Shown: positions 12,827 through 64,000 of the stretch, one piece after another
Layout of the letters: each line of letters starts with the position of its first letter
Numbering within the stretch: position 1 is the stretch's first letter
Origin: an uncultured virus (IMG/VR IMGVR_UViG_3300047539_000004)
Taxonomy: Duplodnaviria > Heunggongvirae > Uroviricota > Caudoviricetes
DNA length: 64,000 nucleotides
Strand: one strand, 5' to 3'
Virus record (IMG/VR): IMGVR_UViG_3300047539_000004
Made by a program: the position numbers and the translations under genes
Notes under the pieces: model-generated
Told to the model about the DNA's origin: nothing
The model's input: the letters and a program-made list of their open reading frames with translations, nothing else
Databases searched by the model: none

Positions 12827-12911
12827 GAGGGTATGGCGGAACTGGCAGACGCGATTGATTTAAGATCAATTGTCGAAAGGCGTGGGGGTTCAAGTCCCTC
12901 TACCCGCACCA
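12827..12911 (+). tRNA. tRNA-Leu(TAA)
   Basis: cloverleaf, ATTGA-TT-TAA-GA-TCAAT, long variable arm, GTTCAAGTC, encoded CCA. Confidence 0.92.
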
Positions 12912-30010: not shown

Positions 30011-30341
30011 CACATATCAAGAACAAGCGTGGGAAACGGCACAGTATCCGCAATCAGGCGCTAACATGGTATACCCGGCTCTAGGACTAGCAGGAGAAGC
30101 CGGTGAAGTTGCAGAGAAGGTTAAGAAAGCATGGCGTAATCAGGGCATTACAAATGGCGCGTTAGTTTCTGATTCAGTTGCAATCGAAATAGCCAAAGAG
30201 TTATCAGACGTATTGTGGTATGTATCCGCGTTAGCTAAGGAACTAAACATCCCGTTGGCAGATGTTGCTCAAATGAATCTGGACAAGTTGCATGACAGAA
30301 ACAAGAGGGGCGTGATTAAGTCGGAAGGAGACAACAGATAG
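29997..30341 (+). CDS. MazG-like nucleotide pyrophosphohydrolase
   Basis: YQ..A..TA.YP...YPALGLAGEAGEVAEKVKK...KEL.DVLWY...N..KL..R..RG.I...GD.R. Confidence 0.9.
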   Translation: MLNFDTYQEQAWETAQYPQSGANMVYPALGLAGEAGEVAEKVKKAWRNQGITNGALVSDSVAIEIAKELSDVLWYVSALAKELNIPLADVAQMNLDKLHDRNKRGVIKSEGDNR

Positions 30342-30422
30342 GGTGTGTAGCTCAACGCATAGAGCATTGATCCTCTAACTAAAGGATCAACGATAAAGGT
30401 TGGACTCCTTCCGCACCCTCCA
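30341..30422 (+). tRNA. atypical tRNA-like gene (8-bp anticodon stem, 8-nt loop)
   Basis: acceptor GGGTGTG/CGCACCC plus T-CCA; D arm GCTC/GAGC; T loop TTGGACT; anticodon arm TTGATCCT-CTAACTAA-AGGATCAA. Confidence 0.65.
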
Positions 30423-33703: not shown

Positions 33704-33778
33704 TGGCATGAGAAGTAGGATTTGAACCCACACTGCAAGACTTTGGAGGTCTGCCGTCTACCGTTGACTTATTCTCAT
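33704..33778 (-). tRNA. tRNA-Trp(CCA)
   Basis: AGAC-CT-CCA-AA-GTCT, GGTTCAAATCC, encoded CCA. Confidence 0.85.
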
Positions 33779-33779
33779 G

Positions 33780-33855
33780 TGGAGCTAGCGGAGAGGGTCG
33801 AACTCCCGACCTTTTGATTACAGATCAATTGCTCTACCAACTGAGCTACGCTAGC
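33780..33855 (-). tRNA. tRNA-Thr(TGT) with C33
   Basis: GCTAGCG/CGCTAGC, TTGA-TC-TGT-AA-TCAA, GTTCGA, CCA. Confidence 0.8.
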
Positions 33856-33948
33856 AAATATCGCGGGTGGATTTGTCTCACGACTGGGCTCCACCCTGCA
33901 CCCCTTTGCTACCTTTTACGCTCTTACAGCCGGATAGCAAAGCTTGTC

Positions 33949-34185
33949 TTACCTATTTAAAGTTGTGCGGTCTGTGTCGAAGTGGGTAAGTGAGCGAAAA
34001 CTTCCCCCCTGCCCCAACCAGAGTAACAATACTAACATTGCCGTCCAAATCATTTGCTGCGCAATCCAAATCAACTTAGCGTTATTTGGTCCATTAGGGG
34101 GCACGCCCGGTCCTAATATCGCATACAATACCAAGCCGACAATCAAAACGATGAATACAGTTAACAAATACTCTCCAGTGTTCAT
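33949..34185 (-). CDS. small two-TM membrane protein
   Basis: two hydrophobic helices; lies within the tRNA cluster. Confidence 0.5.
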   Translation of the reverse strand: MNTGEYLLTVFIVLIVGLVLYAILGPGVPPNGPNNAKLIWIAQQMIWTAMLVLLLWLGQGGSFRSLTHFDTDRTTLNR

Positions 34186-34204
34186 AGTTCAAGTGTTTCT
34201 ATCT

Positions 34205-34279
34205 TGGCACAGGGCCAGAGACTCGAACTCTGACAACAGGCTCCAAAGGCCCGTATTCTTCCAATTAAATTAGCCCTGA
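34205..34279 (-). tRNA. tRNA-Gln(TTG)
   Basis: CGGGC-CT-TTG-GA-GCCTG, GTTCGAGTC, G-CCA. Confidence 0.85.
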
Positions 34280-34351
34280 ACAAGAGCGCTGCCGTCATAC
34301 GTTAAGACCCCACGTGTGAAATAAGGCCATACGGCGTACAACAGCAAAATT

Positions 34352-34425
34352 TGGTGGACCTGTAGGGATTCAAACCCTAGCTCAAACCATGCAAAGGTCT
34401 TGTGCTCTCATTACACCACAGGCCC
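34352..34425 (-). tRNA. tRNA-Ala(TGC)
   Basis: G3:U70 pair, AGACC-TT-TGC-AT-GGTTT, A-CCA. Confidence 0.88.
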
Positions 34426-60844: not shown

Positions 60845-61091
60845 AGCCCTCCAGCTATAAATACTGTCTGTTACTCGCTAATGCTTGTACAATGCAATTT
60901 ACCTAACGGTAACAGTGACTTCAAGCGGCTGCGCGGCCTAACTGAAGTCAAATATCTGCATACTTCCTTAAGAATTAGTAATCCACCTTTTCTTAATTCC
61001 CTACGCAGAAGAAACTTGTGGGAGTGTGTATGCCGGGGTAGGATATTCGGTCCCGCGCCTCAACTCCCTGCCCTCTGGCTTCAAGGGATTT

Positions 61092-61388
61092 TTATTCAGA
61101 ACTGTTGCCTTGGCTTATGGCTTGCTGCTTACCCAATGCTTCGAGTGCTAGCGCGACGATAGAATCATAATCCAATGGACCGCAATCTAACTCGCCAAGC
61201 GTCCACAGTTTTTCCAAAGCACGTTCGGATTCAGTCTCAGTTTCGCACAACTCTTGAAAGTTACTGTCTGCCTGATCCTGAGAGTTTTTTAGAGAGCGGC
61301 GTAGTTGCTTGTTGACACTACGCTGCACTCTGTTGTTTTTACGTAACACGAATACCTCTTCCGTCTCTTCCTGATACGTGCGTTCCAT
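61092..61388 (-). CDS. hypothetical protein
   Basis: AGGAG RBS; open frame. Confidence 0.55.
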   Translation of the reverse strand: MERTYQEETEEVFVLRKNNRVQRSVNKQLRRSLKNSQDQADSNFQELCETETESERALEKLWTLGELDCGPLDYDSIVALALEALGKQQAISQGNSSE

Positions 61389-61400
61389 TGTGTTCTCCTA

Positions 61401-62336
61401 TTAAGCAAGTACCTCAACGTTGACTGAAGCGTAAATCTTATTGATTGGCAAGCCATTCATAGGATTCCCGCTAGAAACAACATCACCAACACTGTTGTTA
61501 AATGTTGGGAAAGATACTTCAACTTCCACATGCCCAAGGGCCACTGCTGTAATCAAACCATCGGCACCAACTGTAGCAACTGCGGTGCTTGTCCCGGAAG
61601 GCTGATAGGTGTTACCTGTCAAGGTCTTTGAAGGATAAGCCACATAAGTTAGCTTGTTAGTTCCGCTCTCTTCTGAAGTTGCTGTTGCTGCATGTGTCTC
61701 AGCAATAGCATCAACGTTAACAAGAGTTAGGGTTGTTGCAGAAGATGCGGTAGCAAGGAAGGTTCCGTTGTTTGTGGGGTTAGTTACGAACCCGGCAATT
61801 GTGAAATCCTGTCCTGCAAGAGCATTAGAACCACCACCTGTGATTGTGCCTGTGTAAACTGCCACACCTTCGTCTGATGCGGCTGTAGCTGCATGTGTTT
61901 CTGCAACTGCTAGGTCCACAAGAGTCAAAGTTGTTGCAGAAGATGCTGTGCAACCAAACACGCCATTATTGGCCGCGTTTGTAAACCCGGCAACGGTAAA
62001 TGTATCTCCCGCAAATGCGTTAGAACCGCCGCCTGTAATTGTTCCGGTGAATACTGAATGAATTCCATCAGTAGAAGCAGCAACTGAAGTCAGCACTAAT
62101 ACACCGACTGAAGAAGCAGCAACTGAAGTTAGAGCCAATGCTGAACCTGTGTCAACCACCGCGCCTGAAACATCGGCAACTACGGGGTCAAGTTGAAAAG
62201 TCTCTGGGTAACCACCCACACCAGTCAATGACAACTTAACACCATTGTACCCCGGAGTTGTTTTGCCGGGATGAATGTTGCCAGTTGACAAAATCTGTGC
62301 TGCTACGCCAAGACCTGTAGTAGAATTAAATGCCAT
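61401..62336 (-). CDS. capsid decoration / Ig-like (Big_2) virion protein with an internal ~70-aa repeat
   Basis: VATV.ADGLITAVA.G; duplicated TGTITGGGSNA.AG..FT.AGF.N..NNG.F..TASSATTLTLV...AETHAATA. Confidence 0.7.
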   Translation of the reverse strand: MAFNSTTGLGVAAQILSTGNIHPGKTTPGYNGVKLSLTGVGGYPETFQLDPVVADVSGAVVDTGSALALTSVAASSVGVLVLTSVAASTDGIHSVFTGTITGGGSNAFAGDTFTVAGFTNAANNGVFGCTASSATTLTLVDLAVAETHAATAASDEGVAVYTGTITGGGSNALAGQDFTIAGFVTNPTNNGTFLATASSATTLTLVNVDAIAETHAATATSEESGTNKLTYVAYPSKTLTGNTYQPSGTSTAVATVGADGLITAVALGHVEVEVSFPTFNNSVGDVVSSGNPMNGLPINKIYASVNVEVLA

Positions 62337-62356
62337 TTATTTTCTCCATAGACGTC

Positions 62357-62381
62357 AAAGGAGAGTTTTTAGGCTCTCCTT
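62357..62381 (-). terminator. terminator-like hairpin after the capsid gene
   Basis: AAGGAGAG-cctaaaaa-CTCTCCTT. Confidence 0.55.
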
Positions 62382-62394
62382 CGATCAATTTGAA

Positions 62395-63773
62395 TTAGCT
62401 GATTGCGCTTGCGGCATCAATCTCACGGATTCTGATTGTTGTATCCTATTTGTTATCAATAACTTGCGTCATTGAGTTAGGTCATTTCTGCCTAACTCTC
62501 ATGGTTTTTGTTCCCATGAGAACGGACTATCGCATCACCTTTCGGTGCCCTCTCACTTAGTCTCTCACGCTGCCTTTCGGCTTGCGCCCTGTTAGCCATT
62601 TCAGCTTCCAAGTCAATCAGAGTGGGTTTATTACTCGCCCCAATACAATGTTTAGGGCCGAGCGAAGTTGTAAAATGAACTCTATCAATTTGTTATAATA
62701 TTTCCCAAATCTTTGGCTAAAGTATATATTTCTTCAAGCCTTTGTAAAACAACTTCTTGTGGAAGCTGTTTACCGTATGCGCGAGTCATGCTAGCTTCCA
62801 TCCAAGCTTTTAAAGTAAAGCTAGATTTGCTAGTCTGACATGATAAGAATCTGGTTTCTTCGTGTGTAGTGCAGCAAGGAACTAAGTTACCTTTTACATG
62901 GCCTATAGAGGAATTTAATCTATCTAATCCCCATACTTTACCATCTTCAGGCTTTCGTCCACAATAAGCACACACTCTAGGGTTTCCTTCACTATCTAAA
63001 TAGTAAGGAATAGCTTCAACAGGACTTGTAAATCCAAATTCCCGTTTTTCAAGTTTATCAGTCCACTTCATACTAGCGTAACGTTTCCGTATGCTCTTAT
63101 AATAACCGTTCGACATGGATTTAGCTTTTAAAACGCCTTCCATACCTTCCCGGTTAAAGTGAACTAGTTTACCTTGTTTTCTCCATTTCGCAGCCCATTC
63201 TTGAATAGTACCGATAGTTACGCCGGTTCTAGTTTGAATCTCTTTTTGACTACGATTTTTAGAAAGAAGTTCGAATACTTTATCTTCAGTTTCTTTATCA
63301 ATTTTTATCATGCATACCTTAGGAGATATTAGATTGAGCATTTCTGTCAATCTCTTATAGTTTTATTCCTATAAGATCGGACTATTACTTCAGCCGTTTG
63401 GCTGTCTTCTTGTTTAGTCTCTCACGGCGAAAAGAATTTGTCAAGTCTTTTCTTCCGCCTCGTTGCCGTTTCAGGTTTCGAGTCGATTAAAGAAGATTAC
63501 TGATATCCTGTTTAAAGGGTCAGCCCATATATGATATTCTTATATCATGTAATGTTTAGGAAGTCCATCCGGGGATTAGCCCTTCGGGATCGGCAACTGT
63601 CGGTTCCTGTTATTTAGTTGCCTACAACTTCTGAGAACGCCAAACCTTTTAAAATCAATAACTTACCAGCGTTCTGAACGATATTGCACTTGATGTTGCT
63701 CCATTCACCGTCACCAAAACCTGTATCGCCTTGCGCACCGAGTTTGATAGAGAAAATACCATCACGCCCGAAG
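62395..63773 (-). CDS. 3' part of the putative major capsid protein gene; exons 63668-63773, 63558-63606, 62654-62685, 62395-62445
   Basis: joined exons read in one frame FGRDGIFSIKLGAQGDTGFGDGEWSNIKCNIVQNA/EPTVADPEGLIPGWTS-Y-RVHFTTSLGP/DTTIRIREIDAASAIS*; upstream of the decoration protein; resembles N4-gp56-type capsid C-termini. Confidence 0.72.
62446..62653 (-). mobile_element. group I intron, 208 nt, no ORF
   Basis: exon U then intron AAACAUU...G; IGS UUGUAUU-GGGGCGAG pairs both exons; core GUGAGAGACUAA and GAUAGUCCG. Confidence 0.9.
62685..63350 (-). CDS. intron-encoded HTH plus HNH/His-Me homing endonuclease
   Basis: N-terminal HTH-like segment; CAYCG...GLDR.NSS.GH..GN.VPCC; the true start may be the downstream ATG (MIKID). 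Confidence 0.8.
   Translation of the reverse strand: MTEMLNLISPKVCMIKIDKETEDKVFELLSKNRSQKEIQTRTGVTIGTIQEWAAKWRKQGKLVHFNREGMEGVLKAKSMSNGYYKSIRKRYASMKWTDKLEKREFGFTSPVEAIPYYLDSEGNPRVCAYCGRKPEDGKVWGLDRLNSSIGHVKGNLVPCCTTHEETRFLSCQTSKSSFTLKAWMEASMTRAYGKQLPQEVVLQRLEEIYTLAKDLGNIITN
62686..63557 (-). mobile_element. group I intron, 872 nt, with endonuclease ORF
   Basis: splits a Tyr codon (U/AU); starts AAACAUU and ends G; core GUGAGAGACUAA and AAUAGUCCG. Confidence 0.88.
63607..63667 (-). mobile_element. 61-nt coreless group I-like mini-intron
   Basis: precise removal restores the frame; U/..G/ boundaries; P1 and P10 guide; ends UAACAG. Confidence 0.7.
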
Positions 63774-64000
63774 CTTGGATTGTTACTCGCTTTTTATAGC
63801 GGAGCAAGTCATTTCTGCTTGCTTCTTGGAGTTAAATTCTGTTATTAATTTGCAATGCTCTAGGAATGTAGTTTGTGAGTAGTTACTTTTGAATGAATTG
63901 CACACTCCGCAGCAAGCTACTGTATTCTCAGTTTGATAACCTTTTGCATTGTCTACTCTATCTACACCGTTATAGGTGTAACTATTTTGACTACCATAAC
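63774..64000 (-). mobile_element. 3' end of a further group I intron (truncated by the window edge)
   Basis: GCAAGCAGAAAUGACUUGC hairpin homologous to those in the other introns; ends UAACAAUCCAAG. Confidence 0.75.
63783..64000 (-). CDS. C-terminus of an intron-encoded HNH endonuclease (partial)
   Basis: YNGVDRVDNAKGYQTENTVACCGVCNSFKS. Confidence 0.8.
   Translation of the reverse strand, partial: YGSQNSYTYNGVDRVDNAKGYQTENTVACCGVCNSFKSNYSQTTFLEHCKLITEFNSKKQAEMTCSAIKSE

Follow-up and report, generated by a model that had tools for sequence, protein, structure and literature searches.

Group I introns are generally treated as self-contained elements, each equipped with its own ribozyme. An exon-final U opposite a G, a P1/P10 guide and a terminal G are recognition features specific to group I ribozymes. 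In Staphylococcus phage Twort, orf142 reportedly contains three group I introns and undergoes exon skipping, and its ribozymes are said to use the splice sites of neighbouring introns, so that there is already a known case of a core that works at the splice site of a different intron. The gene 60 of phage T4 is said to hold a 50-nt coding gap together with the mobE homing nuclease. In Euglena chloroplasts, group III introns are abbreviated group II introns that are thought to need trans-acting factors, and it has long been proposed that the spliceosome originated from group II introns via substrate introns with shared catalytic RNA.

Introns in capsid genes have also been reported. The accessible text of one paper describes the LittleE capsid intron and cites Tuc2009 (PMC3706429), and that of another gives the capsid gene of Faustovirus E12 12 introns, of which five were recognised as belonging to group I and none is shorter than 396 bp (PMC6247863). 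In trans excision-splicing ribozymes and "spliceozymes", according to the portions available of two reports, a group I core cuts out an internal stretch of RNA devoid of a ribozyme of its own (PMC2532722, PMC4094466). A natural group I intron without a core was not found in the open-access literature or on bioRxiv.

The window analysed here is a stretch of 64,000 nucleotides from an uncultured virus (IMG/VR record IMGVR_UViG_3300047539_000004). Judged by sequence comparison, the virus is an uncultured peat phage with Tunturiibacter phage Tunturi_3 as a relative, and the window ends within its gene for the major head protein. This gene lies on the minus strand, and positions 62395-64000 cover its 3' third, in which exon borders were set by alignment to Tunturi_3 gp6:

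64000..63774, minus strand: 3' part of intron A, full length 935 nt (8040..7106 in contig L082)
63773..63668, minus strand: exon E1, 106 nt, codons about 265-300, 91% identity to Tunturi_3 gp6 by tblastn
63667..63607, minus strand: mini-intron B, 61 nt, no catalytic core
63606..63558, minus strand: exon E2, 49 nt, 16 residues identical to Tunturi_3 gp6
63557..62686, minus strand: intron C, 872 nt, group I, family R1
62685..62654, minus strand: exon E3, 32 nt
62653..62446, minus strand: intron D, 208 nt, without an open reading frame (ORF), group I, family R1
62445..62395, minus strand: exon E4, 51 nt with the stop codon counted in, 16 residues identical to the C-terminus of Tunturi_3 gp6

The alignment bears out the exons of 106, 49, 32 and 51 nt, separated by four intervening sequences, that had been proposed from the letters of the window in the original prediction. 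Its identification of a capsid gene also holds: the contiguous homologue of the joined exons, Tunturi_3 gp6, carries the annotation "major head protein" and matches phrog_1357 at 1.2e-13 (PHROGs), while no Pfam match was obtained for this head protein. The joined peptide is identical to the homologue at 76 of 79 positions, and this identity, together with the exact joints in RNA contigs from three runs, indicates that the exon pattern is not due to chance. Downstream of B, 30 of 132 nucleotides differ from Tunturi_3, yet none of the 44 encoded positions is changed, which indicates that the exons 3' of B are read in frame.

The remainder of the gene was reached through L082, a metagenome contig that matches an exact 45-mer of the window (the same 45-mer has no match in IMG/VR) and is identical to the window across 7332 nt. 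It reveals two further introns upstream, I1 and I2, so that a gene of 343 codons is interrupted at least six times: by I1, A, C and D, which belong to one group I family (R1), by I2, which belongs to a second group I family, and by the mini-intron B. These two introns outside the window, and the fact that B is an unusual element devoid of a ribozyme core, had escaped the first reading of the sequence.

The four interruptions within the window are precisely removed from RNA. The data consist of assembled Logan contigs from three metatranscriptome runs of three studies, with one DNA run (X1) as control; such contigs cannot reveal strand or molecule ends, and the RNA and DNA runs are different samples. 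All three RNA runs have contigs in which the exon joints coincide exactly with the predicted borders and 61, 872 and 208 nt are skipped. None of these three joints occurs in the single DNA run, in which a contig spanning 62578-63676 holds B and C intact with no mismatch. At the 3' junction of intron A, RNA contigs of runs X15 and X16 pass as loose ends from 63773 directly into the upstream exon. The micro-exon E2 is retained in a joined contig (record 19 of X16), which has no mismatch to the window across E4, E2, E1 and the downstream flank. The spliced contigs have a depth of 153-385 and the intron-bearing contigs of the RNA runs one of about 60-70, contig depth being only a rough guide.

To judge from covariation, A, C and D are members of a single group I family, which goes unrecognised by Rfam at the gathering score. 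In an alignment of 14 members of family R1, 97.6% of the cells are paired and 32 of the 45 pairs show changes on both sides; no shuffle out of 500 reached the observed pairing, and slid controls gave 29.5-40.4% paired. The order of the core is P3-P4-P5-P6-P7-P3'-P8-P7'-P9-P9.1, including the P3 helix and the P7 pseudoknot, and P7 shows one G-C to A-U exchange alongside a skipped base that was read as a bulge. The R1 model matches C, D, A and I1, with 144.9 bits for C (at 63307-63524), 202.7 bits for D and 79 bits for A (at 7769-8029 of L082). The general group I model, whose use had been suggested as a check, was also run: Rfam Intron_gpI (RF00028) gives C 22.8 bits (E 0.0043), under the gathering score of 50, and has no match in D. 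Across the whole window, Rfam at the gathering score returns tRNAs only and no Intron_gpI, and a scan by E-value adds nothing further. Intron I2, which has its own ORF, reaches 27.6 bits, and an ORF-less intron of the I2 type in L134 reaches 55.0 bits, above the gathering score.

The sequence motifs said to be shared by the full introns are present where claimed:

63557 and 62653: AAACATT, in full introns C and D
63423 and 62566: GAGAGACTAA
63385 and 62530: ATAGTCCG
63817, 63346 and 62490: CAGAAATG

The three complete interruptions, B, C and D, likewise have an exon-final U before them and a G as their last base, as had been stated, and A ends in G too (at 63774). The P1 and P10 pairings comprise 5 bp with a U.G (plus 3 by eye past a bulge) and 7 bp in D, 4 bp with a U.G and 3 bp in A, 8+4 bp in I1 and 5+5 bp in I2. 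Intron C is an exception to this pattern, its best candidates for P1 being only 3+3 or 4+0 bp. Nuclease genes of a type typical of homing elements are found in three of the six interruptions. The window holds the C-terminal end of the ORF of intron A (63998..63783); the whole ORF has 245 aa and matches phrog_374 "HNH endonuclease" at 4.7e-25 (PHROGs). The ORF of intron C (63350..62685, 221 aa), whose stop codon straddles the 3' splice site, matches phrog_1035 "endonuclease VII" at 2.1e-08 (PHROGs). Both ORFs, which had been described as HNH nucleases, match phage nuclease families and are putative members of the HNH group; Pfam gives neither an HNH match at E<=0.01, only a weak HTH match. Taken together, core covariation, R1 scores and RNA joints substantiate the view that group I introns cut this gene into micro-exons, with the qualification that, within the window, only A, C and D are group I introns in full. 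The two outcomes named beforehand as refuting the original prediction, missing spliced junctions and a joined peptide devoid of a contiguous homologue, are both contradicted by these data.

The exception is B, which has no P3-P9 core and no P7 G-binding site and is matched neither by R1 nor by Rfam; without a core, it is not a full group I intron. Its parts, and the exon bases with which its tail pairs, are the following:

63646..63642, minus strand: P10 guide, 5 bp, contiguous with P1
63641..63634, minus strand: P1 guide, 8 bp, G opposite the exon-final U
63631..63621, minus strand: tether strand (Pt)
63607, minus strand: terminal G
62674..62664, minus strand: exon strand of the tether helix Pt, within E3

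All 61 nt are assigned: the loop takes up 21 nt, the guide 13, the linker 2, the tether 11 and the spacer 13, and the terminal G completes the piece. No shuffle out of 2000 reaches the observed P1 and P10. By these predicted pairings, B is shown to have kept no more of a group I intron than its substrate side, namely a guide to the end of E1 and the start of E2, and a terminal G.

Similar mini-introns occur in relatives. The survey covered 129 related IMG/VR contigs, of which 37 have an intron in the gene and 92 are intron-free. Mini-introns of 33-94 nt were found in 16 of the 129 and, with B, represent 14 distinct sequences at seven sites; a third IMG/VR harvest of 16 new contigs brought no new one (14 were uninterrupted and two had an intron at site 22). 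P1, P10 and the terminal G are present in all 14. Thirteen were scanned by script and the fourteenth (L134/L135) was read by eye. Each of the 13 has a G opposite the exon-final U, a P1 of 6-12 bp and a P10 of 4-8 bp, and shuffles match the observed P1/P10 in 0-27 of 2000 cases. In addition, homologous mini-introns show compensatory differences in P1 and P10.

The mini-introns keep company with full-length introns. They occur in 16 of the 37 intron-bearing contigs and in none of the 92 intron-free ones (Fisher p = 1.2e-10, a value for contigs that are not phylogenetically independent, the counts being inflated by shared ancestry). Every one has a full intron 26-103 nt downstream, and full introns at sites 318, 327 or 330 are preceded by a mini-intron in 11 of 11 contigs, L067 and L113 among them.

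A further pairing may link the two kinds of element. The tail of B can pair over 11 bp with bases of E3 that adjoin P1 of intron D (the last 9 nt of E3 form part of this P1), and a pairing between tail and exon next to the P1 of the following intron is found in seven of the 14 mini-introns, B included. The test was informative only when confined to the last 22 nt ahead of the following splice site; in an unrestricted helix search, shuffles did as well as the real sequence in 12-999 of 1000 cases. Lengths of the predicted tether helices, with the number of tail shuffles out of 5000 that reach them, are:

B: 11 bp, 4
L119: 9 bp, 16
L114: 10 bp, 15
L092: 9 bp, 14
L027: 11 bp, 5
L102: 11 bp, 0
L145: 9 bp, 33

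In the other seven (L117, L134, L120, L142, L067, L113 and L138) the tether is not significant. Where present, the helix stops 6-10 nt before the following 5' splice site. Upstream of the intron at site 327, five lineages keep 7-8 of the 8 core pairs, with changes on both sides at five positions, and the MFE fold, a model prediction, recovers P1 of B, the tether and P1 of D side by side. Visual inspection for a motif common to the tails, or for P9.0-type pairing of the tails with J7/9 of the helper, gave nothing convincing.

The best explanation of these observations, and probably the correct one, is that mini-introns are non-autonomous group I introns that use the ribozyme of a neighbour, a step that we infer. 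B would be excised by group I chemistry supplied by another intron, most likely the downstream intron D. With the tail of B on the exon bases adjoining P1 of D, two substrate helices would be held at one junction, near one core. In the window, C and not D is the nearest intron downstream of B, and as long as C is unspliced the tether partner is another 872 nt away. For the tether to form, C would need to be spliced out beforehand or be looped out. As to origin, an intron probably inserts at a similar site in the vicinity of another one, with loss of its core to follow. The full-length introns at mini-intron sites 20 and 53 are the sole documentation for such core loss; at sites 300, 302, 307 and 313 no full-length intron was found among the 129 contigs. 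Mini-introns would be maintained thanks to continued splicing by the neighbour. On balance, the data lean towards a division of labour in which full introns give the ribozyme and "satellite" introns of 33-94 nt give only guide, tether and terminal G.

The strongest alternative, although an unlikely one, is that B, still an intron of group I type without a core, is spliced in trans by whichever free group I ribozyme is present in the infected cell, for example excised I2, with no need of a tether in cis. Excised introns of this abundant transcript are candidates for such a role: the P1 guide of B has the same 8-9 bases as that of I2, and the ends of the two 5' exons are alike. Moreover, the mini-introns of L117, L134 and L120, which lack a significant tether, lie about 100 nt from the next intron, and engineered group I ribozymes can cut internal RNA segments in trans, as the available parts of two reports describe (PMC2532722, PMC4094466). 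However, a diffusible helper would need neither a full intron always within 103 nt downstream nor a covarying tether that adjoins the P1 of the next intron, and L119 shares the guide of B yet has no intron at site 91.

A different question is whether the introns act as a regulatory gate on capsid production, as the original prediction had suggested, rather than being tolerated selfish mobile elements. The introns sit in a late gene with high expression, and the constant presence of a mini-intron upstream of full introns at sites 318, 327 or 330 hints at functional coupling. Nevertheless, a gate seems quite improbable. More than two thirds of the related contigs (92 of 129) dispense with introns in this gene, and in the others their number and position vary over roughly 19 sites; half of the six interruptions carry genes for homing-type nucleases. 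The RNA gives no sign of poor splicing, the spliced contigs being deeper than the intron-bearing ones, and the proposal is thus unsupported.

It is very improbable that B is removed by a protein pathway, in which a phage or host RNA endonuclease and a ligase would recognise the splice-site helix without any ribozyme. The lack of a core in B would suit such a pathway. However, a protein has no reason to need the exon-final U opposite G, the contiguous P1/P10 and the terminal G found in all mini-introns, and genes that lack a full group I intron never contain a mini-intron in the contigs surveyed (0 of 92).

Equally little credence is given to the possibility that B is unspliced, the joined RNA contigs stemming from an intron-less variant or an assembly error and the window carrying a broken gene or encoding a truncated head protein. 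The limits of Logan contigs and the different origin of the RNA and DNA samples leave room for this reading, and relatives without B do occur in the same runs, where they are recognised by joints with replaced letters. These relatives, however, differ in sequence from the window, whereas record 19 of X16 does not; the three joints recur in three runs of three studies and are absent from the DNA run; protein positions 3' of B are unchanged despite the nucleotide changes; and B, read straight through, contains an in-frame stop. Finally, a bypass of the 61 nt by the ribosome, as in T4 gene 60 with its reported 50-nt gap, or a gene split into two separately translated pieces, is practically out of the question: although B has an in-frame stop and a length that is not a multiple of three, and the 35-nt mini-intron of L027 ends in a TAATG stop/start overlap, no matched take-off and landing codons yield the conserved protein, the E2 frame of the window has no start codon after the stop, several other mini-introns were read to lack such an overlap, and the RNA is devoid of the 61 nt.

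If mini-introns are indeed served by the ribozyme of a neighbour, one ribozyme can act on several substrates of a single transcript. Intron loss would then not need to be all-or-nothing, because a decayed intron could survive beside a working one. The change from self-splicing to shared, spliceosome-like catalysis would become testable in an RNA-only system made of a 61-nt substrate and a 208-nt ribozyme, and mini-introns with their full introns would be the group I counterpart of the step proposed to lead from group II introns to the spliceosome. There are also practical consequences, since gene callers truncate this capsid gene, a key viral marker, and without a search for the P1/P10 signature, inserts of 33-94 nt would be mistaken for frameshifts or pseudogenes.

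Set against known systems, the five full introns (A, C, D, I1 and I2) resemble described group I introns in their exon-final U, terminal G, core and, for some, homing-type nuclease ORFs, and resemble those of capsid genes in their location and their splicing from RNA. They differ from the single-intron systems in that six interruptions, not one, share a gene of 343 codons, and those of family R1 in the window fall under the Rfam gathering score. Twort orf142 and the Faustovirus E12 capsid gene likewise combine numerous introns with very short exons in a single structural gene. Phage capsid introns and dense capsid clusters being already known, the density that had been called unusual has precedents; the new part is the 61-nt piece B. 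Unlike the mini-introns, the Twort and Faustovirus introns have hundreds of bases each, and the accessible parts of the reports mention no core-less piece of 33-94 nt.

The gap of T4 gene 60 and B are both short non-coding inserts in an essential phage gene, associated with homing nucleases and absent from the protein, but the former stays in the mRNA, where the ribosome hops over it, whereas B is removed from the RNA. Group III introns are closer in kind: they too are short derivatives that keep splice signals, have lost most of the catalytic structure and occur alongside full-length relatives, and in both cases the helper is inferred, although group III introns differ from mini-introns in belonging to the group II class, with its chemistry, and to a eukaryotic organelle. 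With the trans excision-splicing ribozymes and "spliceozymes", as far as the available text describes them, B shares splice sites set by P1- and P10-type pairings. However, these are laboratory designs in which the guide is on the ribozyme, whereas B is natural, has its guide inside the excised piece and appears to be tethered beside the helper's own substrate helix.

The feature lies on the minus strand. When 61000-64000 was compared with phage genomes by blastn, two short pieces matched at 80.9% identity, both within gp6 of Tunturiibacter phage Tunturi_3, the major head protein gene (343 aa), where they are uninterrupted. Gp6 itself matches phrog_1357 'major head protein' in PHROGs (1.2e-13) and nothing in Pfam. 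Exon borders were set by alignment of the window with the gp6 gene; this reproduced the exon sizes of the original prediction (106, 49, 32 and 51 nt), whose quoted motifs are also present where it had placed them.

Exons (E1-E4, borders from the gp6 alignment) and intervening sequences (A-D) of the head protein gene
last base 63774, minus strand: intervening sequence A, 5' part beyond the window end
63773..63668, minus strand: exon E1, 106 nt
63667..63607, minus strand: intervening sequence B, 61 nt
63606..63558, minus strand: exon E2, 49 nt
63557..62686, minus strand: intervening sequence C, 872 nt
62685..62654, minus strand: exon E3, 32 nt
62653..62446, minus strand: intervening sequence D, 208 nt
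62445..62395, minus strand: exon E4, 51 nt including the stop

The peptide of the joined exons has a contiguous homologue, as had been anticipated: 76 of its 79 positions are identical to gp6. Downstream of B, 30/132 nucleotides differ from gp6 but 0/44 positions, and these exons are therefore translated in frame. Directly after the head protein gene lies a repeat-rich 311-aa ORF (61401..62336, minus strand), with no match in Pfam or PHROG, at the position of Tunturi_3 gp7, which is annotated as a tail fiber protein. The window also contains six tRNA genes (12827-12908, 30341-30419, 33707-34425), including a minus-strand cluster of four.

Window DNA was found in 20 public runs, six of which are metatranscriptomes, and three RNA runs from three studies were compared with one DNA run over 61400-64000. 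The predicted junctions are present in RNA: all three RNA runs have contigs, at depths of 153-385, from which D (208 nt), C (872 nt) and B (61 nt) are precisely absent. In addition, a 764-nt RNA contig without mismatches comprises the downstream flank, E4, E2 and E1, with an E3-sized gap between E4 and E2; it continues from E1 into the upstream exon, and A is therefore spliced too. None of these joints occurs in the DNA run, in which one contig spans the 5' part of D, E3, C, E2 and B mismatch-free; the main limit of this evidence is that it consists of assembled contigs with a single DNA control run.

No exact copy was found in IMG/VR. Among metagenome contigs, L082 matches the window without a difference over 7332 nt and extends 2.5 kb beyond it. 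It supplies the full A (935 nt, with a 245-aa ORF) and two further interruptions: codon 22 is followed by I1, of 394 nt, which holds the remnant of an ORF (54 aa), and codon 91 by I2, of 626 nt, whose ORF has 178 aa. The head protein gene, whose first nine codons lie beyond the end of L082, therefore contains at least six intervening sequences. In PHROGs, the ORFs of A, C and I2 match 'HNH endonuclease' (4.7e-25), 'endonuclease VII' (2.1e-08) and phrog_5046 (1.9e-14), respectively; in Pfam, the best result for the intron ORFs was a weak HTH match. The 54-aa ORF of I1 (L082:9493-9657, minus strand) is inserted at P8 of an intron that is otherwise typical of its family (R1, below), and resembles what is left of a nuclease gene; it has no PHROG match and only a weak, sub-threshold Pfam match, Vir_act_alpha_C. 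The stop codon of the C nuclease ORF (62685..62687, minus strand) straddles the 3' splice site, its final base being the first of E3. By eye, this ORF (62685..63350, minus strand) resembles a free-standing one on the related contig L067 (3215-3838, plus strand), directly downstream of the head protein gene and beside an ORF-less intron after codon 330, so the same nuclease type may occur both intron-borne and free-standing next to an intron.

At the gathering score, Rfam detects no group I intron in the window. In E-value mode, C and I2 score 22.8 and 27.6 bits, and an ORF-less relative of I2 in L134 reaches 55.0 bits, above the threshold of 50. When D is aligned with 13 relatives that lack an ORF, taken from related contigs, the helices follow the canonical order P3-P4-P5-P6-P7-P3'-P8-P7'-P9-P9.1, with 97.6% of cells paired and both-side changes in 32/45 pairs; 0/500 shuffles reach the observed value, and slid controls are 29.5-40.4% paired. 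P7 shows a single G-C to A-U exchange, and the skipped base beside it is read as a bulge. The covariance model built on this alignment, R1, scores D at 202.7, C at 144.9 and A at 79 bits, and the halves of I1 at 89 and 85; over the 64-kb window it matches nothing besides the head gene introns. The guide pairings with the 5' exon end (P1, with a U.G wobble) and the 3' exon start (contiguous P10) measure 8+4 bp in I1, 5+5 in I2, 4+3 in A and 5+7 in D; C has only weak candidates.

Six relatives carry R1 matches of 172-174 bits outside the head protein gene, about 4 kb upstream and presumably in another gene:

L015:1923-2130, R1 intron
L016:665-872, R1 intron
L017:1923-2130, R1 intron
L018:1923-2130, R1 intron
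L035:1720-1934, R1 intron
L037:1874-2086, R1 intron

Five contigs (L083, L092, L096, L097, L098) have inserts of 1005-1202 nt after codon 30, which R1 does not match and whose best-scoring borders depart from the pattern of exon-final U and terminal G; these may be a different kind of element, or their borders may be misplaced.

B cannot hold a ribozyme core in its 61 nt, and neither Rfam nor R1 matches it. Read through, it would introduce an in-frame stop and a frame shift. As judged from its pairings, B does carry a complete group I guide: eight internal bases pair with the last eight of E1, with a G opposite the exon-final U (P1), the five bases just 5' of this guide pair with the first five of E2 (P10), and the terminal base is G. 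The observed value was reached by 0/2000 shuffles. B is removed from RNA at borders set by a group I-type guide.

Three IMG/VR harvests, each limited to the best 80 of 220-271 matches, gave 129 distinct contigs with the head protein gene, of which 92 are uninterrupted; the other 37 contain full-length introns, spread over roughly 19 sites. Mini-introns, here meaning short inserts of 33-94 nt, are present in 16/37 genes with a full intron versus 0/92 without (Fisher p = 1.2e-10, although this treats non-independent contigs as independent). With B included, the minis comprise 14 different sequences at seven sites (after codons 20, 31, 53, 300, 302, 307 and 313). All 13 scanned by script have the exon-final U opposite G, a P1 of 6-12 bp, a contiguous P10 of 4-8 bp and a terminal G; 0-27 of 2000 shuffles do as well as the real sequence. 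The remaining one, 41 nt long and present in L134/L135, is closely related to the L117 mini and was read by eye. Same-site minis show compensatory P1 or P10 changes (L027 vs L102; L067, L113 and L138; L092 vs L114; B vs L119). Each mini is followed, at a distance of 26-103 nt, by a full intron, which in L113 is cut by the contig end. Conversely, where a full intron occupies site 318, 327 or 330, as it does in 11 contigs, a mini always lies upstream. Minis were seen only in the neighbourhood of full introns.

An 11-bp helix forms between the tail of B (63631..63621) and a stretch of E3 (62674..62664) that a single base separates from the exon strand of P1 in D. When this helix, the tether, was sought in the last 22 exon bases upstream of the following intron, with the tail shuffled 5000 times, it was significant in 7/14 minis (shuffles reaching the observed value: B 4, L119 16, L114 15, L092 14, L027 5, L102 0, L145 33) and not in L117, L134, L120, L142, L067, L113 and L138. 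Between its end and the next 5' splice site there are always 6-10 nt. In five lineages upstream of a site-327 intron, the exon varies at synonymous positions and the mini tail follows, so that 7-8 of 8 core pairs persist and five positions have changed on both sides. Pairing with the exon that adjoins the neighbour's substrate helix is seen in half of the minis. Folded without C, the stretch from the end of E1 through B, E2 and E3 into D has a minimum-energy structure in which the tether and the P1 helices of B and D lie side by side.

We infer that B is most likely excised by the ribozyme of a neighbouring intron. This ribozyme, probably that of D once C has been spliced, would dock B's P1 in place of its own and perform both steps with guanosine and B's terminal G, while P10 would prevent skipping of E2. 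The main alternative is a diffusible helper, in favour of which the guide of I2 is nearly the same as that of B. As to origin, the guides of site-300 minis match the site-91 intron family, and sites 307 and 327 have exon bases around the splice site in common, which suggests landing at look-alike sites followed by core loss. Full-length introns occur at two mini sites, 20 and 53; none was found at sites 300-313 among the 129 contigs (best 80 per harvest).

The fragmentation of the capsid gene is thus confirmed, and its interpretation is partly supported: capsid gene and group I cluster stand, and gating of capsid production has no evidence in its favour. Phage capsid-gene introns were already known (PMC3706429), and a Faustovirus capsid gene has 12 introns, the shortest of 396 bp (PMC6247863), which makes the cluster itself one more case of a known kind. 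The same source terms seven introns of the Faustovirus E12 capsid gene 'spliceosome-like', with AA...TG as the commonest borders (PMC6247863). An AA start and a G end are also the look of the group I family described here, and these might be unrecognised group I-type introns.

The word 'intron' appears nowhere in the text of the Tunturi phage paper. Together with the 13 other minis, B represents a novel group I intron variant; removal from RNA was seen for B only, and the catalyst is one that we infer. The short group III introns of Euglena are one of the nearest comparisons to the minis. Searches of the open-access and bioRxiv literature, including a 2014 review (PMC3984707), found no description of a natural core-less group I-type intron, and the nearest systems there are engineered trans-excision ribozymes and 'spliceozymes' (PMC2532722, PMC4094466).
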